57,244 nt of DNA from the NCBI GenBank assembly GCA_900128395.1, contig LT649257.1, positions 1 to 57,244 on the forward strand, written 5' to 3'. Numbering within the stretch: the stretch's first letter is position 1; each line of letters opens with the position of its first letter. Below, piece by piece: positions 15,415 to 53,517 of the stretch. A program made the translations under genes and the position numbers. The notes beneath the pieces are model-generated. The model was not told where the DNA came from. It worked only from the letters and a program-made list of their open reading frames with translations, and searched no databases. Source of the stretch: Stramenopiles sp. TOSAG23-2. Lineage: Eukaryota.

Positions 15415-18400
15415 ATGGATATTGACTTAGGTGATGAGATTGACTTGGAGGATGATGAAAACTTTAATGATGGTGGTGCAGAGATTGGTGGTGGTGTGGA
15501 CGATGGTATGAACGAGGAGAACTTTGACGAAGCCATTAATCAAGAACATGTTTGGATCGTTATTACAAAATTTTTCGATGAAAGAGGTCTAGTAAAACAA
15601 CAAATTGATTCATTCGACGAGTTTATTAATACTACGTTACAAACAGCCGTAAATGAGAAAGATACGCACCAAATTTATCCACAAAAGCAGTATATGCCAG
15701 GTGCAGATGACGATTTAACAGATGAGGCAGATACATATTATGAGGTAAAGTTTGATCAAGTATTTTTAGCAGGTCCAACAATTACGGAACAAGACGGTGT
15801 CTCAAGGGCTTTTGATCCACGTGAAGCACGTTTACGGAGTCTGACCTATGCTGCCCCATTGTACGTTGATGTTACCGGTACATGGTACAAAGTTGAGACC
15901 GATATTAGTGTCAGGAGGGAACGTAAATTGAATGGCATGAAAAATTTAGATAATCAATTTGGGGAATCAAAAGAGTTACCTAAACAATATTTAGGTGATA
16001 TACCTTTGATGTTACGTTCACAATTTTGTTTGCTTAGTGGAAAAACTGATAAAGACTTGACAGACTTAGGAGAATGCATTTACGATCAAGGTGGTTACTT
16101 CGTTATCAACGGCGGGGAAAAAGTTATTGTAGCGCAGGAAAGGTTGAATGCAAATACAATATATTGTTTCCAAAAGAAGCAACCAAACAAGTTTTCTTGG
16201 ACATGTGATATTCGTAGTGCGATACCAGGAAATCCAAGGCCACCGCAAGCAGTTGAATTGATGATGTATAATAAAAGTCCAAATGGGCAAAGTCATGAAG
16301 GGAATCAGATATATTGCCAGTTGCCATATTTGCGAACGGCAATACCTGTGGTAATTCTTTTCCGGGCACTCGGGTTAGAATCAGATAGAGAGATTTTACA
16401 GCGTATATGTTACGATTTTAATGATACGGAAATGATGGAACGCTTTCGACCGTCGTTAGAGGAATCGAAAGTGATTACGAGTCAAACTATGGCATTGGAT
16501 TACATTGGAAGTCGTGGTAGTGCTATCAATGTAAGTCGTAACAAGCGTATACAATATGCCAAGAAAGCAGTGTTGCAAAAAAACTTTTTGCCTCATATGA
16601 GTCAAAAAAAAGGCACGGAATCAGAGAAAGCATATTTTTTAGGATACATGGTAAATAAATTATTAAGATGTTCACTAGGTCGAATTACGGAGGATGATCG
16701 TGATCATTACTCCAATAAACGTTTGGATTTAGCAGGGCCTTTAATGGCTCAGTTGTTTCGTACGCAATTCAAAGTTATGGCAGGAGAAATGCATAAATAC
16801 ATGAAGAAACAAATAGACAATGGGAAGCAAATTAATTTAAGTTTAGCAATTAGAGCGCGTATTATTACACACGGTCTACGTTATTCATTGGCAACTGGTA
16901 ATTGGGGCGAGCAAAAAATTGCAAATGGTGGCGGTGTAAAAGCTGGTGTAGCGCAAGTATTAAATCGTATGACCTTCATGGCCTCATTGTCGCATTTGCG
17001 ACGAATTAACACACCATTAGCAAGAAGTGGAAAACAAGCAAGGCCGCGTCAATTGCACAATACGCATTGGGGTATGCTTTGCCCCGCCGAAGTACCAGAA
17101 GGCCAAGCTGTTGGTTTGGTAAAAAATTTAGCTTTAATGTCCTACGTTGCGGTTGGACAAGATGCTGAAAATGTCATTAATAATCTATCTGATTATGGTG
17201 TGGAAAATCTAGAAGAAATTACACCAAGCGATATACACGTCAATTCAAAAGTGTTTGTGAATGGGAAATGGGTAGGTTTAACACGGGATCCAGCGCAATT
17301 GGTTCATTCCTTTCGCAGCTTTCGTCGTGGACATGGAGATGACGAGGCAGTCATTGATATCGAAACAAGTGTTGTTAGAGATATGACGATGAAGGAAGTT
17401 CGATTCTTTACGGATCCTGGAAGAACAATGAGACCATTGTTTATTGTGAAAGATGGAGATTTGTTGATCAAACGGGAACATATTGAGAAGATGAGAGATA
17501 ACAAATTAAGCTTTTCCGGTTTAGTACGCGAAGGTTTAGTCGAGTATGTTGATGTGTCCGAGGAGGAAACCATCATGATTGCTATGGATAGAGATGAATT
17601 GACAACTGGTAAATATTCCAGCACATATACACATTGTGAAATCCACACGGCGATGTTGTTAGGTATATGCGCTTCTATTATTCCATTCCCTGATCATAAC
17701 CAATCGCCTAGAAACACGTACCAAAGTGCTATGGGTAAGCAGGCACTTGGTGTGTACGCATCTAATTACCAAATTCGTATGGATACGTTAGCGCATGTTT
17801 TGTATTACGCGCAATCGCCATTAGTAACGACGCATTCTATGGAATACATGCATTTTCGATTTTTACCCGCCGGTATCAATGCCATTGTTGGCATCATGGT
17901 TTACGGAGGCTACAACCAGGAGGATAGTGTACTTTTTAATCACAGTGCTGTCGATCGTGGTCTTTTCCGTTCTATGTTTTATCGTACATTTAACGATGTG
18001 GAAGAAGGCGATCAAGCAACTGGTACTGGCGGCATGTCATTATTTGGCAAGCCAGAGCGAGATACTCTTGGTTTGAAACAAGGTAATTATGATAAATTAG
18101 ACGATGATGGTTTGGTAGCACCTGGTGTTAGAGTTAGTGCAAATGATGTTTTGATAGGTAAGACGAAACCTATGGCAGATATGATAAGTGAGCAACAGAC
18201 AGGCTCTCAAAGGGTTGTGAAACGCAAAGATGACAGCACTGCAATGAGATCAAATGAAAGTGGTATTGTTGATAAAGTGATGTTGACAACAAATAAGAAA
18301 GGATATAAATTTTGCAAAGTGAGAGTTAGGAACATACGTATACCACAAGTTGGTGATAAATTCGCGTCCAGGCATGGGCAGAAAGGTACTATCGGTATGT

Positions 18401-19119
18401 TGTATAGGCAAGAAGACATGCCATTTACTATGGATGGTATCGTCCCAGATATTATTGTAAATCCACACGCTATCCCTTCACGGATGACAATCGGTCATTT
18501 AGTGGAATGTTTATTAAGCAAAGTCGGTGCATTATCTGGAGAAGAAGGGGATGCTTCTCCATTTTCTGATTTAACAGTGGAAAATGTATCCCAAACGTTG
18601 CATGAATATGGGTACCAAAAACGTGGGAACGAGCAAATGTACAATGGCCATACGGGTAATCCATTACATGCGAAGATATTTTTAGGTCCAACATACTACC
18701 AAAGATTAAAACATATGGTGGATGATAAGATCCACGCTCGTGGCCGTGGCCCTGTTGTTAATTTGACGCGTCAGCCACAAGAAGGTCGTGCGAGAGAAGG
18801 AGGATTAAGATTTGGAGAGATGGAACGGGATTGTATGATTTCACATGGTTCTGTTTGTATGTTACGGGATCGTATGTTTTGGAATTCAGATCCATACCGA
18901 GTTCATGTTTGCGACTCGTGTGGATATTTTTGTAGGGCAGATTTAGACACCCAAACGTTTGTTTGTAAATCACCATCATGTGCTAATCGTAATGTGACAT
19001 TTTCGCAAGTTCATATACCATATGCTTGTAAGTTATTATTTCAAGAGTTGATGGCTATGAGTATCGCACCAAGAATTTTCACCCATACCGAAGATGCTGA
19101 AAAATTTCAAAATAATTAA
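15415..19119 (+). CDS. RPB2: DNA-directed RNA polymerase II second-largest subunit
   Basis: GGYFVINGGEKV, DDRDHYSNKRLDLAGPL, PRQLHNTHWG, DHNQSPRNTYQSAMGKQA, GDKFASRHGQKG and GGLRFGEMERDC; intronless; first ATG at 15415. Confidence 0.99.
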   Translation: MDIDLGDEIDLEDDENFNDGGAEIGGGVDDGMNEENFDEAINQEHVWIVITKFFDERGLVKQQIDSFDEFINTTLQTAVNEKDTHQIYPQKQYMPGADDDLTDEADTYYEVKFDQVFLAGPTITEQDGVSRAFDPREARLRSLTYAAPLYVDVTGTWYKVETDISVRRERKLNGMKNLDNQFGESKELPKQYLGDIPLMLRSQFCLLSGKTDKDLTDLGECIYDQGGYFVINGGEKVIVAQERLNANTIYCFQKKQPNKFSWTCDIRSAIPGNPRPPQAVELMMYNKSPNGQSHEGNQIYCQLPYLRTAIPVVILFRALGLESDREILQRICYDFNDTEMMERFRPSLEESKVITSQTMALDYIGSRGSAINVSRNKRIQYAKKAVLQKNFLPHMSQKKGTESEKAYFLGYMVNKLLRCSLGRITEDDRDHYSNKRLDLAGPLMAQLFRTQFKVMAGEMHKYMKKQIDNGKQINLSLAIRARIITHGLRYSLATGNWGEQKIANGGGVKAGVAQVLNRMTFMASLSHLRRINTPLARSGKQARPRQLHNTHWGMLCPAEVPEGQAVGLVKNLALMSYVAVGQDAENVINNLSDYGVENLEEITPSDIHVNSKVFVNGKWVGLTRDPAQLVHSFRSFRRGHGDDEAVIDIETSVVRDMTMKEVRFFTDPGRTMRPLFIVKDGDLLIKREHIEKMRDNKLSFSGLVREGLVEYVDVSEEETIMIAMDRDELTTGKYSSTYTHCEIHTAMLLGICASIIPFPDHNQSPRNTYQSAMGKQALGVYASNYQIRMDTLAHVLYYAQSPLVTTHSMEYMHFRFLPAGINAIVGIMVYGGYNQEDSVLFNHSAVDRGLFRSMFYRTFNDVEEGDQATGTGGMSLFGKPERDTLGLKQGNYDKLDDDGLVAPGVRVSANDVLIGKTKPMADMISEQQTGSQRVVKRKDDSTAMRSNESGIVDKVMLTTNKKGYKFCKVRVRNIRIPQVGDKFASRHGQKGTIGMLYRQEDMPFTMDGIVPDIIVNPHAIPSRMTIGHLVECLLSKVGALSGEEGDASPFSDLTVENVSQTLHEYGYQKRGNEQMYNGHTGNPLHAKIFLGPTYYQRLKHMVDDKIHARGRGPVVNLTRQPQEGRAREGGLRFGEMERDCMISHGSVCMLRDRMFWNSDPYRVHVCDSCGYFCRADLDTQTFVCKSPSCANRNVTFSQVHIPYACKLLFQELMAMSIAPRIFTHTEDAEKFQNN

Positions 19120-19959
19120 AAAAAACAAGTTATGAAATAGCAAAAAAGCTCCTTTTTATTAAACATGTACAAGACACGTATAAAAAGTAAAATAAATTAC
19201 ACACATATATATATTATATTATATAATATGTAAGAGGTACGATACCTGGTAGTATTATAAAAATGCAAAAAAGTGTTTCTAGATAAATTTTTTGCATATA
19301 CGTCGATCGTAACAATAATAATTTATATCATCCTTGCAGGTACAGTCCATATTTTTTTAATAATACTCTCAGTATTTGTCTATAATAATATCGATAGCTG
19401 GATAGCTGGATAGCCTGGATATATGTAGCCGCCTACCACGTGGTAGCTCTAAGCTGGTAAGCCTGGTAAGCCAGTAAGCCTGGATAGACGACGACACGAC
19501 GACACTAACACGACGACTAATTAATTCTTCTTCTATATCTATCTATCATATCTTCCTAAAAATAATACAAAAATTGTACCTATGTGGTATAAGCTCTAAT
19601 ATAATACATACCACCAGTATACCAAGTACTGATGTGTACTGTGTAATTAATACTCTTACTTACATAATAAAAAAAAAATTGCCGTACGGCGAGAGCCCTG
19701 CATTAGGTCTGGATTTCATTCGAGGGGAGTAGGCACAGCGATGGAGTGTATCGGAAATTAAGGAGGGTTTTGGCAGCTTGATATCAATCTATCTAAATCA
19801 TGATTTAGATTTAGATTCGGTTTAGGTTGGCTAAACATCATAGGGGATATTGGTCTTCTGAGTGTAGTTGAGGCATAGTGTAATATCGTATTTATTGTTG
19901 TAAGGTATTAATATATTAGTGATAATAATTGCAAGAAATTCGGTCTTCATTTAATAGAA

Positions 19960-21934
19960 TTAAGTTGTCAGATGAATGTTGTTTAAGACTACCCCGATTG
20001 GTGAATACTCGATCTTATTATTAGATGCTTCCTCGGTCTTATTATTAGATGCTTCCTCAATCTTATTATTAGATGATTCCTCGATCTTATTATTAGATGA
20101 TTCTAACCCCTTTTTAATACCTAAACTCTTGTTGTTATTTACTAATAAACTTTGTATGTCAGTAATATTAAACCTCTCTTTTTTTCCATATATATTAAAC
20201 CTCTTTTTTTCTTTTTTTTTCATAATATTATTACCAGATAGGTCCAACGTTACATTGTATCTTTTTCTTTTTAATGCATCTTGGATACTTTGTACATCGG
20301 TAATATTATTATCAGCTAGATTCAATTCTGTTAATGCATTGTTTGTTTTCAATCCTTCACCAATACTTTGTACATCGGTAATATTATTATCATAAAAACT
20401 TTGCACATCAGTAATATTATTATTATTTAGGTACAATGACGTTAATGCATTGTTTGTTTTCAATCCTTCACCAATACTTTGTACATCGGTAATATTATTA
20501 TTATATAGGTTCAATTCCGTTAATGCATTGTTTGTTTTCAATCCTTCACCAATACTTTGTACATCGGTAATATTATTATTCACCAATACTTTGTACATCA
20601 GTAATATTATTACTATTTAGGCCCAATATCTTTAATGTATTGTTTCTTTTCAATGCTTCATAAAAACTTTGCACATCAGTAATATTATTATTATTTAGGT
20701 ACAATGACGTTAATGCATTGTTTGTTTTCAATCCTTCACCAATACTTTGTACATCGGTAATATTATTACCATTTAGGTCCAATCTCGTTAATGTATGGTT
20801 TGTTTTCAATCCTTCACCAATACTTTGTACATCGGTAATATTATTATAAGCTAGGTACAAGTCCTCTAATGTATTGTTTGTTTTCAATCCTTCACCAATA
20901 CTTTGTACATCAGTAATATTATTACCCCATAGGTCCAATATCTTTAATGTATGGTTTGTTTTTAATGCTTCACCAATACTTTGTACATCAGTAATATTAT
21001 TATTATTTAGGTACAATGACGTTAATGCTTTGTTTGTTTTTAATCCTTCACCAATACTTTGTACATCAGTAATATTATTACTATTTAGGCCCAATATCTT
21101 TAATGTATTGTTTCTTTTCAATGCTTCATAAAAAATTCGCGCATCAGTACTTGTAATATTATTATTATCTAGGTACAACTTTGTTAATGTATTGTTTCTT
21201 TTCAATGCTTCATAAAAACTTTGCACATCAGTAATATTATTATTATTTAGGTCCAAGTACTTTAATGTATTGTTTATGTTTAATGCATGACCAATACTTT
21301 GAATATTTGCAATATTATTATTATCCAATCGCAACATATATAACGTCTTGTTCGTTTTTAAAAATTCCCCTATAATTTTTACATTTGTAATCTTATTACC
21401 AGTCAAGGTCAATTCCTTTATTGTATTCTTCATTTTTAATATTTTAAAAATTGCGACGCTTTGTTCATATGTGATATTATTATTTTGTAGGTCCATGGCC
21501 TCATTATTATCAGGCCCATTATTATTCAATAGCCGATATATCTCATTTTTCTTTACTATTATGACAGGTGTACTTGGTTTTCTTACAGTTTTCTTGGTCT
21601 TCTTACAATGTTGTAGTCCCAGTATTCCTGGGTTATATAGTATGTTGTTATCCGTATAACATACTGTTCTTCTTTTCCATTTCCATTTTCTTATTCCCGT
21701 TCTTCTCCTATCTGCTTCTTCTTCTCTTTTTCTTTTCTGCTTTGCTGTGAATTGTTTGCTATGCCGATATCTACCTCGTGAAGTGGAGTGTTTTACTCCA
21801 GTTCGATGTTTTGCAACTGCTTCTCTGTTTTTTTTGTTTTTCAACAGGAGTTTCGATTTAATATCCTCTTGCTCTTTTCTATATTTTCGTTTTCTTTCTC
21901 TTTCTCTTTTTTGGTTTAGACTATGCTGTTTCAT
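19960..21934 (-). pseudogene. RI-like leucine-rich-repeat gene (26-aa repeats) with basic N-terminus; frameshifted at ~20579 (ORFs 20576..21934 and 19960..20598)
   Basis: About 15 repeats of type NNITDVQSIGEGLKTNxxLxxLxLxx. A 44-nt deletion relative to the 78-nt module creates TAA at 20576-20578, and the array continues in another frame. The first ORF could still make a truncated 452-aa protein. Confidence 0.85.
20010..20105 (-). repeat. 24-bp coding tandem repeat (EE[A/S]SNNK[I/T]), about 4 copies
   Basis: TCTTATTATTAGATG[CA]TTCCTC recurs with a 24-nt period. Confidence 0.85.
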
Positions 21935-22248
21935 ATGTAATAATCTAATAAAATAATTGATTTCTAAAATGATTTTGTTTAAAAATACACGTACTTCGTA
22001 CTTTACTACCGCTTCTCGGTAATAATATATTTTAACACTCTCCTTCCTTTCTTCTCTCGTTCGTAATGACTTCTCCTGAAAGTCTTAACGTTTTATATTA
22101 ATATTTGAATCCTCTATCTGTATATTACGTATATTTTACACACTCTCTATACCACTTTCTATGTTATATCTGTTATGGCATACATATGTGTGAAAACAAC
22201 AACTTGGATTTATGTTTATCAACACTCCATGCTGTGCTCCTACTAATA

Positions 22249-22482
22249 TTTCAGGCAGGTTTCAGGCAGGTTTCAGGCTGGTTTCAGGCTGGTTTCAGGC
22301 AGGTTTCAGGCAGGTTTCAGGCTAGTTTCAGGCAGGTTTCAGGCAGGTTTCAGGCAGGTCACAGGCAAATCAGGAAATCGCAGGAAAATCGCAGGAAAAT
22401 CGCAGGAAAATCGCAGGAAAATCGCAGGAAAATCGCAGGAAAATCGCAGGAAAATCGCAGGAAAATCGCAGTTAAATCGCAG
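22249..22482. repeat. Two abutting 11-bp tandem arrays: (TTTCAGGCWGG) ~10 copies, then (CAGGAAAATCG) ~9-10 copies
   Basis: Directly visible; followed by two ~38-bp repeats CCCTGCTGTGT..ACAGGTGACGGAAAAG at 22550-22624. Confidence 0.95.
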
Positions 22483-23117
22483 CAGGCATATATGCAAGCA
22501 TATCTGACGAGAAGGGCTGCTGTGCTGCTGTGTTCACTGTACCGTTTAAGCCCTGCTGTGTTCATATGTGACAGGTGACGGAAAAGGCCCCTGCTGTGTC
22601 CATATAATAACAGGTGACGAAAAGTGAAAAAGTAAATGTCCCGGACATATAGTCTAGATGGAATAATATCCTATCAATTATTAAATTACCATTTTTTTTG
22701 TCCGATTCCATAACAGTAAGTGCAATTTATTTTGGTATATTAATAAGTATAAGTCTCTATAGGGAATATTTCCAATTACAGGCCATTTTATAAAAATAAC
22801 AGATTCCCAATTAGAGTACACCAATACCCCCCCCCTAGTACTTTTTCCAACTTAACTATACTACTCTTTCGTACTACAACTAAAACTAATAATTTAAATT
22901 CCTTATTTACTTTTTTAACTTCTTTTCACATATTTTCTTTTCCTTTCCTGGACTACCCTACGCGCACTCTAATGCAGGGGATAAAAAATACACATTCTTC
23001 AAATGTATGTATATACTATAGATTACACACATATGTATATATATGTACATATATATACAACTCACAATTCAACTTATACCCCCCCTCTCCCTGTATTTAT
23101 TTAAGCATACAAACACC

Positions 23118-24266
23118 ATGATACAAGTATTAACGACGAAAGTTCTGCTAAAAAGATCTATTGCCTCAATAAAAAAATCATCTGTCAATAACAATTATAC
23201 TAAACGGAGTTTGAAAAAGATATTTAATAATGGTTTCAACAGTGAGGAAAGGTGTTTTTCCACTTTTCATTCTTGGAATTTTAATCGTATCAGTAATTTC
23301 CCATGTTCTGCCAAGTTGAAGTGTTTGGCTAAGCCACCGTTTTTGGCTGGTACAAACTTTAGCATAAATGGTGTTCTAGGACACATCAATTATTATAATT
23401 ACAACAATGTGAAATATTATAGTAGTAGTGCTTCAAAAAAAGAGGAAGAAGACGAAGATGATTTAAATGACCTTAGTCAAGATGCCGAAGAAGATTATGA
23501 TGATTATCATGACCCACACTCAGTTGAAGATCTTGTTAAAGCGGAAGAGAAATCGAGTTATGAAAAGTATTTGCCAGTTGTAGCAACATGGGGTCCAAGG
23601 ATACTTATTGGTGGTGGTATATCCTATTTAACAACAAAAACATTTTTATATGTTAGTAATACACTGTTAGGAATAACACTTTCTGATGCTGTTTATTTTG
23701 GTTTATTCAGTGGTTTTGTAGGTGCTTCATTATTATACGGAGGCGCCTTTGCATATTATCAAACGTTCCAAAATGTTCGTCCAGAGCCAGTGTTTGCTAA
23801 AGCAATAAAAAAAATGGCGAATAGTGAAGATATTACTGGCATACTTGGAAATATTGGAACATTCAGCTCAATTCAAAGTGGATTTGTACGTGCCTATAAA
23901 TTAGATGGTGGCGATTGGGGCCTAGGTCCAGGTACAAGAGGATTCGCAATACCAACATTTTTAGGAGAAGATAAAAAGTTAGTATTTCGATACCCACGTG
24001 TTCAAATGTGCTTTCAAGTGTATGGTGAGAAACACCAAGCAATGTGTACGGTTGAGGCAATTAATGATCGTGGCAAAATTAAATTTAATTTAATAATGTT
24101 GGATATATTAACAGCACATGATAATGAAGAGTTACAGGATCCAATTTTGGTATATGGTAACGAAGATAGAATGTATGTGCGTGATCAATTGACAGGTTTT
24201 ATTGATTTCAAACGAAATTATTTGGTTGATCCAAAAACATCCGCAGAAACTAGGATGAAACATTAA
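23118..24266 (+). CDS. Mitochondrial inner-membrane TIM21-like protein
   Basis: Basic/Ser-rich presequence and TM segments, then RPEPVFAKAIKKM..RAYKLDGG..MCFQVYGEKHQAMCTVEA..FNLIMLDI, resembling plant/algal TIM21-like proteins. Likely ATG at 23118 (ORF open from 23043). Confidence 0.6.
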   Translation: MIQVLTTKVLLKRSIASIKKSSVNNNYTKRSLKKIFNNGFNSEERCFSTFHSWNFNRISNFPCSAKLKCLAKPPFLAGTNFSINGVLGHINYYNYNNVKYYSSSASKKEEEDEDDLNDLSQDAEEDYDDYHDPHSVEDLVKAEEKSSYEKYLPVVATWGPRILIGGGISYLTTKTFLYVSNTLLGITLSDAVYFGLFSGFVGASLLYGGAFAYYQTFQNVRPEPVFAKAIKKMANSEDITGILGNIGTFSSIQSGFVRAYKLDGGDWGLGPGTRGFAIPTFLGEDKKLVFRYPRVQMCFQVYGEKHQAMCTVEAINDRGKIKFNLIMLDILTAHDNEELQDPILVYGNEDRMYVRDQLTGFIDFKRNYLVDPKTSAETRMKH

Positions 24267-24889
24267 GTTATTAATATATATATATATATACATATTATGG
24301 TAAATATTGTGGTGTATTCAGTAAAAAAGGGGAGTAAAATGCAAGAAATTTTTTTTTATCTATCATACGTACGAATATATTTTTTGAGGAATTTTAACAT
24401 ATATATATATCATACTGATCATATATGAAATTATGCTAGTAACAGTGTGTCTCAATGTCTCAATACATAATGCATAAAATTTTGGAGAAGAATATATATA
24501 TATTCATATATAGTTACCCGGTAAAATCTAAGAGTGTTAATAAAAAATAATTTTACACTCCCCGCGCGTGCTAAGAGTAAATAATATGATGCTCAATTAC
24601 TCAATCGCAAGAATAATATTCTATCCTATGATACTAATAGTAAAGCTCTAATGCACCTCTGCAAACTAATACTCTACAAGCATGAGTAGGTTTCTATCCT
24701 TCCGTGCGCTTTCGTTCAATTTAATGATATGCATAATTTATTTTACTAATATGTGATAAATCGTTAATGCATTAAAATGTTCATTTGGCGAAGAATTATA
24801 ATGAATTATACTCCCTTGGTCACTCTTCAAAATACCAATGGAGATAAATAGATGGTATCAACGTACAGTTGATGGAAAATGTGCTCTTA

Positions 24890-26419: not shown

Positions 26420-26603
26420 GTTGCTTAATCAATTATGTATAAATTTTCCTTTATTTAGACAACATTAATTGAATTGCTAGCTTTATATATATATATATAT
26501 ATATAACTACACTAAATATTATATACATACCTGGTATACCCACACGTATTTATTTTACTATTATTACAATTACTTCAATTACGGTAGTACTTGGTAGTAT
26601 TAT

Positions 26604-26739
26604 TTATTATTTAGGTTCAATTCCGTTAATGCATTGTTTGTTTTCAATCCTTCACCAATACTTTGTACATCGGTAATATTATTACCATTTAGGTCCAATC
26701 TCGTTAATGTATGGTTTGTTTTCAATCCTTCACCAATAC
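26604..26739 (-). repeat. Orphan LRR cassette (about 1.7 modules) related to the LRR gene
   Basis: 26624-26739 is identical to 20708-20823, and 26612-26684 is identical to 20506-20578. Encodes IGEGLKTNHTLTRLDLNGNNITDVQSIGEGLKTNNALTELNLNN with no start codon. Confidence 0.95.
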
Positions 26740-33607: not shown

Positions 33608-36061
33608 CTAAAAATAATTTATCATGTTTGTTGGTTTTCGAATGAAATTACCAAATGTAAATTCCTTCCCATCAGCTACATTACCTCGTTTGGCATCACC
33701 AATGCTGCTATTAATAAAAGTTGAACCACCATTCCGCTGAAATTGAATAGCTATTTTTGCTGAACGGGCATCATTGGCTGAATCATTTGAACCACGACCT
33801 TGTCGTATCTGCGAAAAGAATTGTTCAGCATTATCCTGGTTGAATGCTCTTGGCCGTGGTTGTAATGCATCTGGTAAACTTGTTGGATAATAATAAGCAA
33901 CTACCATGGGCATTGAAGTACATGATAGTTGCATATCCATCCAAGACTGATATGTGATAAACTGGGGCTTATCATTTTTACGATGGCCACCATCTGTCAA
34001 ACTTGGACCTGGTTTTTCACAATCATCCAACCATGCAAAAAACCAGTCCAAACTATCAGCCAATTCCTTCCATTTATCATTTAAATGTGGTAGAGCTGAA
34101 CGATTATTTAACACATCCCACATTTTATTTATATTTTGCATATATAGTAATAAAGATGTGAAGTCAGATTTATTGTTCTTTTCAACTTCATGCATTACTC
34201 ATAAATACCATGTCAAATAATGCCAGTTTTACAACTGCATCTTGCACAAATTGTATACACATACGAGATGTCAATGTATTTGTGAACCATGCACCAAGTG
34301 GAAATGAATGATGCACCTCACCAGTGGTTGAAACCATCAACACACTGCAGTATCAAGCCAAATCCTTATGTGTAAGGAAATGATGATTGAATCCATTGAC
34401 AAGTTCCTTCATATTCAAAACTTTCTCTCCAACAAATCCTACAATTTGATCAGTATTTGAATCATAGTATACCCCAGTCCGCAGAACCATTGCATCTAAT
34501 GATGCTGCTAGGACTGTTAACTCTTTTTCATTTGATTTAAATTTGTAAATACTATTTTTTTTTTCATCACTAATTTGTTTTAATTGCTTACATAAAATGT
34601 TTACACTCTCTACTGCAACACCATCTGTTGATGGAGCTTTGTATTGAGCACGTTTTAAGTGGCAACGAGTTCATCAAGGTTGAATAATTTATGAATAGGA
34701 TCTGCTGTATTTTCTGCATTAGCTGTAATTTGTACTTTCTCCCAAGCGCTTGTATCATTAGTGACTATTTTCTTTGCCTCTTGTTCAAGTTCACTTGCTC
34801 TTTCCTGTGAAACTTTTAATAGGCTCATCATTGTGGAGAATTTCTTCTCCAAGCGCTTGTATCTTTCCTTTAGATTTTTGAGTTGTGATGAAATCTGTTG
34901 TTTTTTCTCATGTTCAATTTGAAATTTCTCACTAGTTGACTTGACACGTTTTTCATGAGAATCCTTTAAATAACTAGTCATTGCAGCTTTGCATTCATTA
35001 CAACTTGTGCCATGTTTATCAACAGTGATACAACAAGTATTTGGTCGAATAGACCATTTTGATGATGATGGTAATGATGATGGTGATAACAAAAGTCCAT
35101 TCTTATACTCAGTATACATGAGGTGATCAACTTTACTTGAGGAGCTGCTACCACTACTAGAAACAACACAAATACTAGAATCTGGTACTGATTTTGAAGC
35201 AAAACAAATATTATTTAATTTTTTTAAATTTTTAGTATTTTTAGATACACACACATCATCCAATCTATTTTTCTGTGCTTGTACAGCAACAGATAAACTG
35301 AATTTGTGCTTGCATCCTATGCATACATTAAAATTAAAAAAACAAACAATACAGTTCATGGCAGCTTCAATACTAGAAAATCGTTCCACTTCTGATGGTA
35401 TAACTCCAAAATTGATTAATGGTGGTGCATTAATATCAGCAACAATGCTTTCAGAAGATGTTTGTTTCCATTCTACATAATTTCCATTCCATGTTCTGTA
35501 ATTTTCACCATATTCTAAACGTATGATATCATTTTTTTCTAACACAAGGCAACGGCCACGTTTGGTACTGGTACTAGAACCACCATCCCGTGGTTGTACC
35601 ATTTCTGCAATTGGTGGTATATCTTTATGTTTCTCCAAGGGAAGAAATTTATATTGTCTATTTACACTTATTATTTTTAATGGATATTTATTTAGTTTTC
35701 CAACCCCTTCAATAATGCCAGATGCAGGATCTACATATAAAAATACAGAACGCATATGAACTCCATCAATAATTTCAACAACATTTATTGTCATTCTAAA
35801 TTGATTGTAACTGACTTGCAGATGATTATTTGTATTGTTCTCATTCATTTGAAATATCAAGCATTTTAAATTATTATACTTTGAAAGTATTTGATGTTGT
35901 AAACCTGTTAAACAAGGAAAATCAGAATGATCATTATCTTGTTTTGGCAACAATTTTGATCTTTTTAATTTGTTTTGAATTTGTTTTGACCAACTCCATT
36001 GTGGGCCTCGGCCTTTCTTCTTTTTCTTTCGTCCAATTTTCTTTCGTTTACAGCGTGGCAT
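33608..36061 (-). pseudogene. Degenerate P-element/THAP9-type transposase
   Basis: Three segments. ORF 34655-36061; an unlisted frame ~34190-34655 reading ASLDAMVLRTGVYYDSNTDQIVGFV..LA*YCSVLMV..FPLGAWF (TGA at 34353-34355); and ORF 33608-34195 with NKMWDVLN and RAFNQDNAEQFFSQIRQGRGSND. The second catalytic Asp and DxxH region are not seen. Confidence 0.88.
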
Positions 36062-42514: not shown

Positions 42515-43251
42515 ATTGGTTTATTGTGTAAGTGTGTGTTTGTGTGTTTTGTTCTTTATTGATATCTTTTACATGTTGCAGTACAGTATAATAATTTTAC
42601 ATTGTAAGAAGAATATTCTAAATAATAATATAATAAAAAAAAATTTTTTTTTTTAGAGCCTTATTATTATTATTATATTACTGTACATACATGTATGCTT
42701 ACGTGCTTAGACTTAATTTTCTTCCAGGAGGCCGGAGCATTGCACCATTTTGTGTTTACTTTAAGGAGTCTATAAATAAGTAGTCGTCGAGTGCCAGGAG
42801 TGCCAGGAGTGCTGGAGTGCTGGAGTGCCACGCCGCTGAAAAGGTACCTGTAATAATAATACCTGTAATAAATTCAATAAATAATACAGGTAATAATATT
42901 ACCTGGTATAAACAAAAAAAAAAATATTATAAATTAAGGCCCATTTACATTATTCTAATTTATGCTTATTATATATGCTTATTATTTTATTGAAAATAAT
43001 AATAATATATATCATTTTTTAAAAATATTGAAGAGGAAAGAAAAAAGAAAGTTATATATATATATTATGTATATATACATATATATTCACTCATACAATC
43101 TCTTATCATACCTATGTTATCATCGTTTTTTCCACTAAAATCATATATAAATTACATTAAGTTTAAGTAAAGTAATTGATATCGTATATATATATCGTAT
43201 ATATATAAAAAAATAAAAAATATTAACAACATTAAAATTCTAATAATAACT

Positions 43252-45414: not shown

Positions 45415-45609
45415 TACGTAATAAAGCCAGTTAGCCAGTTAGCTACTGTATTCTTTTGTTGGAGAGTAGGAAAATTATCATGCTGGCATGTGCGGGTAAA
45501 TTGAAAAAATAATTTTTTTTCGTACACACATATCTATATATTTTTAATACGAATTAATATACTGACATATACGTATTACGTTCGTAAATATTACGAAGCG
45601 TATAATATT

Positions 45610-50278: not shown

Positions 50279-50456
50279 TCTTATATTATGTTACATATAT
50301 ATATTTAAAGAGAGCGCGCGAGAGAGACAATTCTTGTTTCTTTTCTTTTTCTCTTTTCCGGGTACCATTACCATTTAAAAGAAACCCAAGAATAAGAAGG
50401 GTTTGACTGGATTACTAAAACTGTATGCGTGTTGTTGTTTATTAAACTTTTATTAA

Positions 50457-51124
50457 AGTGCGTCCCTTTCATTGTTATTAGTGTTAAATGGATCGAATTT
50501 TCGTCCATTTAAGTGCGTTTCCTTTGCTGTGTTCCTATTAGACCCTTTTGATAGACTCATTTATATACAACTTTAAGTACATTTAAGTGCGTTTCCTTTG
50601 CTGTGTTCCTATTAGACCCTTTTGATAGACTCATTTATATACAACTTTAAGTATAAATAAGTGTCATAAATATCGTAAATATGCCTCGTTAAGACCACCC
50701 CATGGCAAAAAACGACTATTCTGCCAAATTACGTCAAAATATCCGCGTATACGCACTATTACGGCAATATATTTTGGCATATTGTTATGTTATTTACGAT
50801 AAGTTTTAAACTATTTATAATATAATAATTTATATTTATTCTAACCCTAACTCTAAGACGGTAAAAATATTCTATGTCACTTTTTCCTTGTTACCCGGGT
50901 AACAAATGATGATGTGCACCTGCTAATATTCATGATTTTCGAGAGGGGTAAAAAAAAAAGTCTTAACGAGGCATATTTACGATATTTTTGTATCAAAAAT
51001 GTACTTGTTACAGTACAAAATACCACCATACAAACAGGCTTAGCATGAACACAGCAAAGGAAACGCACTTAAATGAGTGAAAATTCGATTCATTTAACAC
51101 TAATAACAATGAAAGGGACGCACT
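50457..51124. mobile_element. Non-autonomous TIR element (MITE), Kolobok-like, 668 bp
   Basis: TTAA on both sides (50453-50456, 51125-51128). ~78-bp TIR AGTGCGTCCCTTTCATTG..GCTGTGTTC (50457-50534 / 51047-51124) and inner 28-bp IR (50668-50695 / 50960-50987). AG..CT termini with a TTAA TSD fit Kolobok; no ORF. Confidence 0.85.
50506..50653. repeat. Exact 74-bp tandem duplication inside the MITE
   Basis: CATTTAAGTGCG...CTTTAAGTA at 50506-50579 and 50580-50653. Confidence 0.95.
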
Positions 51125-51211
51125 TTAAACTGTTGTGATGCAATCCTGGCAATACCAGCTGGACCAGGTTAAGGTAACTTCTTTCAGCACACATAGAAGC
51201 CGTTTTATTAT

Positions 51212-51267
51212 ATGAGTGAAAATTCGATTCATTTAACACTAATAACAATGAAAGGGACGCACTTTAA
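51212..51267. repeat. Extra copy of the MITE right end, including TTAA
   Basis: Identical to 51073-51128 (offset 139). Confidence 0.92.
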
Positions 51268-51355
51268 AGCTTTTTCTTCTCCTTTTGCGTGAGGTATTGG
51301 CTGCAAACCCTATCAATTATAGTACAGTCTTTTTTTGAGAATTAACCTTAAGTCT

Positions 51356-51643
51356 TGGAGATACGTATCAAATTTGATACGTATCTCCACCTGTCACTTA
51401 ACAGGTAATAGCATTGCACTCCCAAAATATATTATGTTTTGCCATTCGTAAATTATTAAAACTGGTCAATATACCACAAATAAATTGACAAAAGCGGATA
51501 TTTAAATCAGATACGTATCAAATTTGATACGTATCTCCACCTGTCACTTAACAGGTAATAGCATTGCACTCCCAAAATATATTATGTTTTGCCATTCGTA
51601 AATTATTAAAACTGGTCAATATACCACAAATAAATTGACAAAA
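51356..51643. repeat. 135-bp direct repeat (150-bp period), each copy headed by a palindrome
   Basis: 51359-51493 equals 51509-51643; TGGAGATACGTATCAAATTTGATACGTATCTCCA (51356-51389) is a perfect palindrome. Confidence 0.92.
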
Positions 51644-52201
51644 TCGGCATAAGCTGTGGTACTCCCTCAATTCGCACAAAACGTCATGATCGTCATGACA
51701 CCTCGTTTCTATTTTATAATACTGTGTAGTATATACACACTCCCTAGCTGTAATGCAATATCATTTGTATTGCTATTTTCAGCTAGCATAACAACTTCTT
51801 CTAAAAAGCTGCTGTGATGGTAGCTCATTTTTAATAGGTTCACATCAGCCAGACAGCACTAGGTTAGCCTGGTTAGAGCTATAGCTGGTTAGCATCGTCA
51901 TATAGTCATCTTCAACAAGGGCCATAATTTTTTTTCAATTTCGTAAGAAGCCAACCTGGCCAGCCAGCCAGCTGGCCACCTGCTAAGGCCTGCAAGACGT
52001 CTCGAAAGTGTAAAGAAGTGCTTGTTTTGTTTATTCTCCATACTTACACTATAATAACGTAATAACTGTCAGAGCCACTAAATATATACATAGATATAGA
52101 ATACTATATAGACTTCCTTCATATATCAAGTTGTATATATACAACACATTGTTGATCAAGTGAATATAACTGTAATTAGTTTTGGAAGGCAATAAAACAT
52201 A

Positions 52202-52468: not shown

Positions 52469-53517
52469 AAATTAGATTGTATATACAAAATTCAAGGTAC
52501 AATTTATAATTCCACAGTTTTAAATTGCACTGAATATAACACGGAAAGTTTACGCAATGGTGGGGTATTATCTCCTCTTAATTTCTATTACAGCGACAAG
52601 TTTAAATACTCGCTGCGTACAGAAATAGAGGAATAAACTTTTAATGTGCACATTGTACATGTAAGAAGAAAAATATAGAAATTTTTGACGTTCTCAAACA
52701 AATGGAATAGATTGAACTTTCTATTGATACTCATCAAAAATGGTCAAAAATGCAATATGGGAACTAAAATGGTGAATATTGAATATCCATCAAACTATAT
52801 CATATTACATGGATGTGGTATTAAAAACATTTAGCATTAAAATATATAAGAGTAAACATAAGAAGAAGCGACATTAACAAGATTATATGAAGATGAAAGA
52901 GATTAGAAGAAATTGTCACCCTGTCTACATTTTTATACACACAAAAGTTTCGAATTCCTAGTTTAGTCTGCGTCGTGTATTTTTTTGAGAGTGACTCCCA
53001 AAATTTTAAAATAATAAAGTACCTTTTAAGTTTTAAGGATTTTACAACATAATGCACTAATGGGCAATTAAGATTTATAAAATTGTATACTTTAAGTACT
53101 AACAACTCTAATGTTCCTCTATGTATCAGCACCAATACCCAATATTTGTGAAGGCATTATATATGGACACAGCACTAGCTCTAGCTATAATTCTCAAAGT
53201 CTATTTCTTCTGGAGAAGAGGCTAACTGGCGGCTAATGGCTAGAGCTAACTGGCTAAATAAAGGCTGGAAACATTAACATCATCAGCACATCCATCATCA
53301 TCACATCATTTTTTTTTTTTTTGAATAATAAATATACATTATATCATAAAAATAAAAACTATTTCAACCAATATGACATAACTTTGTATGTAGAACAAAA
53401 CAAGGATATATATACAATTGCAACCAATATATATATACAAATAATTACATTATCATTTATCTCTCTTCTTGATTGGTCCACTAATAATAAGATTTAGTTG
53501 ACAGTATAATAATAACA

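Follow-up and report, generated by a model that had tools for sequence, protein, structure and literature searches.

The window analysed here is a 57,244-nt stretch of DNA (contig LT649257.1 of assembly GCA_900128395.1, positions 1 to 57,244) from Stramenopiles sp. TOSAG23-2. It is AT-rich, at about 28–44% G+C, and dense in ordinary eukaryotic genes, including those for RPB2, a HEATR5-like protein, an FtsH-type protease and transporters. Within it, a 3308-bp segment on the minus strand (19673–22980) carries a leucine-rich repeat (LRR) gene and very probably belongs to a family of mobile elements. The RPB2 protein of the window is 93% identical to a metagenome protein. Because its best named relatives, at about 58–59% identity, come from oomycetes and ochrophytes, the host is most likely an uncultured marine stramenopile-like protist. 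The stretch was found in two small runs of one organism and in many marine metagenomes and metatranscriptomes from 12 studies. Contigs from three marine DNA metagenomes (X3, X4 and X7) and from one poly-A RNA run (X15) were aligned on the region 18300–24300.

Read on the minus strand, the segment has the terminal strings reported in the original prediction: T6-ATC-CCCTGCATTAG, with the arm at 22979–22969, at one end and CTAATGCAGGG (19706–19696)-CTCTC-GCCGTACGGC (19690–19681)-AA-T10 (19678–19669) at the other. The two arms form a perfect 11-nt inverted pair, and the exact 11-mer occurs at these two sites only in the window. The 10-nt palindrome GCCGTACGGC, which had been described as a stem-loop, lies 5 nt past the arm CTAATGCAGGG. 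Two modules recognizable by alignment in other copies lie at the ends, both on the minus strand: a conserved end module (19673–19925), common to the metagenome copies L002, L003 and L006, and an other-end module (22790–22953), which is 88% identical to positions 276–440 of L002 and, judging from loose contig ends, recurs elsewhere in three metagenomes. The two 11-nt tandem arrays noted earlier were confirmed by repeat finding and together span 22249–22482: TTTCAGGCAGG is repeated 10.8 times (22249–22367) and CAGGAAAATCG 10.3 times (22371–22482). A 38-nt tandem repeat with 1.9 copies follows at 22551–22624. The LRR gene itself, recognized from open reading frames (ORFs) and Pfam LRR matches, occupies 19960–21934 on the minus strand and has about 17 units of 78 nt.

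A metagenome collection was scanned for the end motif, defined as the arm followed at a variable distance by the palindrome. Six contigs were returned. One of them is a G+C-rich chance match with a different spacer (L005) and was rejected; the other five (L001, L002, L003, L004 and L006) come from at least four assemblies and share with the window an identical 26-nt end, CTAATGCAGGG-CTCTC-GCCGTACGGC, followed by AA and a T-run. The palindrome is invariant in all six copies, and the conserved end continues for 23 nt plus the T-run past the arm in each of them. The length of the T-run at the border varies (T6, T8, T9, T10, T12 and T14). Inside the end, 100 nt are 74–90% identical (six pairs among the four copies that extend so far), and the window's last 100 nt before the 26-mer are 74–77% identical to L002, L003 and L006. 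Homology reaches inward for about 250 nt between the window and the others (roughly 70% identity), for 340 nt in L003 and for 520 nt between L002 and L006 (95.6%). Past the T-run, 80 nt are 39–61% identical (15 pairs among six copies), which is the background level, and the sequence there is unrelated among the contigs and to the window. The flanks of the other copies carry different ordinary genes, such as those for FtsX-like permeases, a GMC oxidoreductase and a polycystin-type channel. Loose ends and joints point to further variant copies in three metagenomes whose studies differ. Searches of 596 Gb of prokaryote genomes and of viral contigs did not turn up the end motif. The outcome named in advance as fatal to the original prediction, single-copy ends with no family boundary, did not occur: the 26-nt end is present in five other contigs and has a sharp border.

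The conserved end module is not uniform in length. The window copy has an extra stretch of about 40–50 nt at 19788–19840 that is missing from L002, L003 and L006. One X3 contig skips 19789–19839 and has 16 other letters in its place; end-module variants therefore coexist in the sea.

A corresponding empty site, which the original prediction had proposed to look for, is present in natural populations. One X3 contig connects 19672 straight to 22981, skipping 3308 nt, with an overlap of 1 nt (both=1). Its depth is 7.86, a contig depth rather than a copy number; the shorter side of the joint is 29 nt and the likeness threshold was 90%. The left breakpoint lies inside the T/A-run where family homology stops, and the right breakpoint lies 1–2 nt beyond the other inverted-repeat arm. 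Because both coordinates match borders set independently by the family alignment, the joint was accepted. In its empty form the site has the minus-strand sequence ...TTTTTTAT|TTTTATTATG (also given as ...GTATTTTTTAT|TTTTATTATG...), which is a T|T site, and target-site duplication (TSD) is absent at the joint (n=1, 29-nt side), as had been predicted. The originally proposed insertion at 19669–22988 therefore stands as a discrete event, whereas its borders move to 19673–22980, with a 1-nt ambiguity that permits 19674–22981. The 5' T6-AT and four of the ten 3' T belong to the host; in the T10 run at the conserved end (19669–19678; A10 on the plus strand) about 6 T are element and 4 T are target. 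With these borders the arm at 22969–22979 lies 1 nt inside the joint. Judged from the aligned contigs, the insertion is polymorphic, some genomes being filled and others empty. Other joints (e.g., 18465 to 21947 and 19132 to 20597), whose sides measure 20–23 nt, correspond to no feature and were set aside, as were the X15 joints at 20220–21820, which fall in T-rich, low-complexity sequence.

Among the other copies, only L002 reaches the second end. Its layout consists of the 5' module, about six 38-nt repeats of the unit also found at 22551–22624, 380 nt of AT-rich sequence and the conserved end; the copy is about 1.05 kb long and has no gene, a build that by analogy is that of a HINE-like non-autonomous element. 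Contigs from X3, X4 and X7 match the window rightwards of 22790 and, by eye, continue to the left of this position as the reverse complement of L002 441–461, so that L002-type copies are present in all three metagenomes. Another X4 contig departs from the window sequence at 22927. The core at 22790–22927 recurs in several contexts while the outermost 30–50 nt differ, and the two copies comparable at the second end disagree in their last 30–50 nt. This diverse outer 5' part fits, by analogy, the published observation that Helitron-like elements vary more at their left ends than at their right.

Only for the copy in the window is the inverted repeat established. By itself, an 11-nt inverted pair is not rare in the window: 33 perfect pairs with at least 6 G+C and within 4 kb are present, where 50 block shuffles give 2.46 on average, and one foldback at 50.4–51.3 kb accounts for many of these pairs. 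The terminal pair draws its meaning solely from the evidence of the family and the empty site.

The organization of the ends matches the published description of HLE2 elements (Helitron2/Helentron, with the non-autonomous HINE/DINE-1 type), as the original prediction of a Helentron-type non-autonomous element had it. According to Thomas et al. (2014, PMC4067079) and HELIANO (2024, PMC11417382), HLE2 elements carry a short inverted repeat at each end with a stem-loop following one of the two, insert at T|T without duplication and have variable T strings at their borders, and non-autonomous copies often have central tandem repeats. The autonomous members are marked by Rep (HUH) and a Pif1-like helicase, with DUF6570 as a marker and an endonuclease in Helentrons. 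In the present family a palindrome lies beyond the inverted repeat, the target is T|T without TSD (n=1), the T string varies and tandem repeats are central. Precise alignment of the end in multiple copies with unrelated flanks holds for the conserved end in 6/6 copies. Where the description gives an inverted repeat of 12–16 nt, the window has a perfect pair of 11 nt and L002 is without the arm. On this evidence we interpret window 19673–22980 as one copy of a non-autonomous family with HLE2 end anatomy in a stramenopile-like protist, and the family as a putative rolling-circle HLE2 group, with a probability of roughly 0.6.

Several observations weigh against this interpretation: (i) The 11-nt arm is just below the published range. 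(ii) L002 lacks 22 nt that include the arm, leaving the arm in one of the two copies that have the 5' module. Even with up to two mismatches allowed, neither L002 nor L003 contains it, and no second arm was found in L003 (2.7 kb upstream) or L006 (1.9 kb upstream). (iii) The 3' stem-loop folds no better than shuffles (z = +0.36), the stem of the palindrome being 3 bp. The 5' "hairpin partner" fares similarly (z = −0.97); the palindrome is nonetheless invariant as a sequence. (iv) The empty site is one contig in one of the three DNA metagenome runs, with a 29-nt side at 90% likeness. Joints with sides this short are often spurious, and the sequence between the two sides of this one is not known. 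(v) The 1-nt ambiguity of the joint also permits an A|T site with the element starting 5'-TC. (vi) No Rep/helicase is encoded in the 28 scanned window ORFs (at least 120 aa, of 33 in all, the remaining five overlapping larger ORFs on the other strand or frame), and no genome-wide search for one was made. The same holds for eight large ORFs scanned in L001, L003, L004 and L006; L002, in which all ORFs are small, was left out of that scan.

Three other classes were considered and rejected. A canonical Helitron (HLE1) is not indicated: CTRR is absent, the conserved end reads ...GGCAA-T(n), and 5'-TC with A|T is obtained only under the 1-nt alternative joint. A cut-and-paste transposon with terminal inverted repeats, or a derived miniature element (MITE), does not account for a conserved end that runs past the arm in 6/6 copies, nor for the lack of duplication at the joint. 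A non-long-terminal-repeat retroposon or short interspersed element is disfavored as well, since the end run is T where it would be 3' and A where it would be 5', and no TSD is present.

The family could also be a real mobile one of another or undescribed class, driven by a tyrosine recombinase, an IS200/IS605-like or some other enzyme, with a convergent likeness to HLE2. This would be in keeping with the weak hairpin, the inverted repeat not kept in L002, the missing Rep/helicase partner in the ORFs scanned and the fact that one end only is conserved and sharp, with 250–520 nt common among copies. However, each structural feature that could be tested (arm with palindrome and T string, T|T target, lack of TSD, central repeats) fits HLE2, and Helitron-like elements with variable left and conserved right ends are known (PMC4067079; PMC11417382). 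We consider another class unlikely, though it is the strongest of the alternatives.

For the HLE2-like family we infer a rolling-circle mechanism, an element polarity and a manner of gene capture. A Rep/helicase encoded elsewhere would nick one end and peel off one strand, and the peeling would halt at the conserved signal formed by the inverted-repeat arm, the 5-nt spacer, the palindrome GCCGTACGGC, AA and the T-run. The strand would then enter a T-run between two T, and the target would stay unduplicated. The LRR gene and its upstream short-repeat arrays may have been picked up between the end modules, in the way that Helitron-like elements take host DNA. Either polarity is possible, because the related HLE2-reverse elements of Phytophthora carry the stem-loop at the 5' end (PMC11417382).

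It could further be argued that there is no insertion at all. The 250–520-nt module would then be a dispersed small RNA gene or terminator beside an ordinary LRR gene, and the 3.3-kb difference would be a deletion between A-runs. The stem with its T-run does resemble a terminator, each of the two breakpoints falls within an A/T run, LRR genes of this family also occur widely by themselves, and an LRR piece at 26593–26739 has no family ends. However, the module has no Rfam match, whether taken from the window or from L002, L003 or L006, and none of the 28 predicted pairs covaries in a consensus fold of four sequences, a test of low power. A deletion would not be expected to begin exactly at the homology border and end 1–2 nt from the matching arm, and L002 has both end modules with no gene between them. 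A deletion beside a functional module thus seems improbable.

The cargo of the window copy consists of two LRR ORFs, 21934–20576 (452 aa) and, in another frame, 20598–19960 (212 aa). The first 150 residues of the longer ORF are basic and of low complexity, and no relative of this N-terminal part was found among proteins of 248–791 aa. It is probably not coding, and the real start is probably M147 at 21496. Pfam matches to the array are strong (LRR_4, 9.7e-37; LRR_6, 1.3e-17). A signal peptide or membrane segment was not found in the protein, for which the maximum 19-aa hydropathy is 0.57. Judged from its sequence, the product is a soluble, LRR-only protein of the RNI type (LRR_6/LRR_4) rather than a membrane receptor, and the receptor-like character given to it in the original prediction is not borne out. 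It has 246 relatives at E ≤ 0.001, the best at 61% identity, and some of these are fused to ankyrin, kinase, NACHT or caspase domains.

The repeat array is interrupted by a 34-nt partial unit (unit 10; 20575–20608, minus strand), seen also as a period-34 repeat at 20545–20612, which shifts the frame and leads to a premature stop. This stop may be real or may be an assembly error in the repeat. A second short unit of 33 nt keeps the frame, and units 8 and 12 are identical. Among the 11 full units, compared by eye, variability is highest at positions 20, 24, 25 and 22 (seven, five, five and four residues, respectively), the most variable residues are the x positions of LxxLxLxxN, and ten scaffold positions are invariant. 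The ligand face proposed as diversified is therefore variable at the predicted places, whereas the pattern, as far as sequences tell, is the usual one for LRR proteins generally.

In the poly-A RNA run X15, long contigs with zero mismatches cover both flanking genes, and the LRR array is matched only by short contigs of 90–95% identity. Nothing in 19305–20108 or 21918–23123 is covered; this absence of cover proves nothing on expression of the cargo.

The LRR piece at 26593–26739 is an isolated two-unit fragment of 146 nt. It is intergenic, lies 6 kb from the array, is 96.6% identical to 20679–20823 and ends in a C8 run, with no element ends nearby. LRR sequence therefore also moves or decays by routes other than this family. 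A 16-nt string, G8+TATTGGTG, is common to 22838–22823 (minus strand) and the fragment junction at 26739, and proved no better than shuffles.

The original prediction went further: by means of the family, a hypervariable, receptor-like LRR gene would be spread as a mobile recognition or immune system. The window copy does carry a complete LRR array with variable residues at the x positions, and L006 has a RING/U-box-TPR_12 gene directly adjoining the conserved end module with the same orientation. However, LRR units are present in none of the five other copies, the window gene has a premature stop, its product has neither signal peptide nor membrane segment, and the nearest protein relative is only 61% identical. 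Among the six copies, LRR cargo is confined to that of the window; a family spreading this gene is not supported, and we regard the immune vehicle as quite improbable.

The RING/U-box-TPR_12 gene of L006 (3–1445) enters the conserved module 17 codons before its stop, and its similarity to L002 sets in abruptly about 50 nt ahead of the stop. The gene may be a second cargo, or the element may simply have inserted into it; the contig is too short to tell. A broader reading, in which the family would act in wild marine protists as a shuttle for recognition genes with repeat domains (LRR here, RING-TPR in L006) and with cassettes that vary between cells, is a long shot. If true, it would amount to a transposon-borne, population-level repertoire of recognition genes in the ocean.

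A chance inverted repeat or a chimera in the assembly of a single-cell genome, to which the abundance of 11-nt inverted pairs in the window and the small size of the likely source runs might point, is scarcely credible and already largely refuted by the exact 26-mer and border in five independent contigs from at least four assemblies and by contigs of three other metagenome studies that cover parts of the element.

The closest counterparts of the HLE2-like family are HINE/DINE-1 and HLE2 elements, with which it shares short terminal inverted repeats (in the window copy) with a palindrome or stem-loop after one of them, TT insertion without TSD, a variable T border, central tandem repeats and a right end that is conserved while left ends are more diverse (Thomas et al. 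2014, PMC4067079; HELIANO 2024, PMC11417382). Compared with these, the window arm is 11 nt (theirs are 12–16), the palindrome is only 10 nt and the T string is 6–14 nt (theirs is 2–5) (PMC4067079; PMC11417382). In addition, one copy here is without the 5' arm, no autonomous partner is known for the family, and the host is an uncultured marine stramenopile-like protist.

A second point of reference is HLE2-reverse, represented by Proto-Helentron/HelenPi572 of Phytophthora infestans and FoHeli3/4/5 of Fusarium (PMC11417382). These elements likewise occur in a stramenopile host (Phytophthora), have inverted repeats of about 12 nt with a stem-loop by one repeat and a clear border at one end only, and carry extra host-like domains, TIR and SET. 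In HLE2-reverse the stem-loop occupies the end that is 5' with respect to the Rep/helicase gene, whereas here the polarity is unset without that gene; and the host-like cargo there consists of domains inside autonomous elements, whereas here a whole LRR gene lies in a non-autonomous copy (PMC11417382).

Canonical Helitrons offer a different comparison: a rolling-circle element bears host gene sequence between its ends, and genomes differ in its presence or absence. Gene capture of this kind by the HLE1 Helitrons of maize was reportedly described by Morgante and colleagues in 2005. HLE1 elements have 5'-TC and 3'-CTRR ends, an A|T target, a hairpin about 11 nt before the 3' end and no inverted repeats, whereas the element here is without CTRR and has inverted repeats with a palindrome beyond the arm.

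The LRR and tetratricopeptide repeat (TPR) genes of Ectocarpus, also a stramenopile, resemble the cargo in having variable residues on the binding face and reshuffled repeats (Zambounis et al. 2012, PMC3341825). There, each repeat is an exon and the authors report no role for transposable elements, whereas here a single open-frame array lies inside a mobile element.

Gene-carrying Helitron-like elements are well known, stramenopiles included (PMC11417382), so that the finding extends a known theme and opens none. The word Helitron was not found in the ten best-ranked of 64 papers on marine stramenopile single-cell genomics. What the locus offers is a well-bounded HLE2-like family from a marine protist not yet in culture, for which natural populations provide both the filled and the empty form of one site and of which one copy holds an entire captured gene. 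Its conserved 34-nt end is a handle with which to count and map the family in marine metagenomes and to fish for the autonomous partner, and it permits testing whether repeat-protein genes are over-represented as cargo.

The neighbouring gene, earlier called TIM21-like, has no match in Pfam (E ≤ 5), NCBIfam (E ≤ 1) or PDB (E ≤ 1), which leaves this name unsupported. With the element removed, a G+C-rich motif cluster at 19393–19517 lies about 220–290 nt upstream of the start of this gene; similar clusters occur in other intergenic regions, and from its sequence the cluster is compatible with a promoter role. G+C-rich tandem motifs of 8–13 nt are present between genes at 81–143, 2522–2545, 19393–19517, 42789–42830, 45425–45443, 51956–51982 and 53219–53256. 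They are of the same style as the arrays in the element and may be promoter-type elements.

In the metagenome copy L003, a direct repeat of about 115 nt, seen by eye on the minus strand at about 1712–1600 and 572–460, has two copies that are separated by 1.14 kb and both lie upstream of the module at the conserved end, and a histone H3 gene is located further upstream of these repeats.

Elsewhere in the window, 50453–51647 is foldback-like, with 98-nt inverted arms (50453–50550 and 51031–51128; 89% complementary), a 74-nt tandem duplication at 50498–50645 and a 150-nt duplication at 51359–51647 (99%), and may be another small mobile element. A 195-aa ORF at 33608–34195 (minus strand) weakly resembles the RNase H C-terminal domain of TNP-like (P-element/THAP9-type) proteins, with a match below the cut-off (E = 7.3e-5; 23.1 bits against a cut-off of 24). 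Near the start of the window, a 206-nt sequence is tandemly duplicated at 337–750 (2.0 copies, 99% identity).

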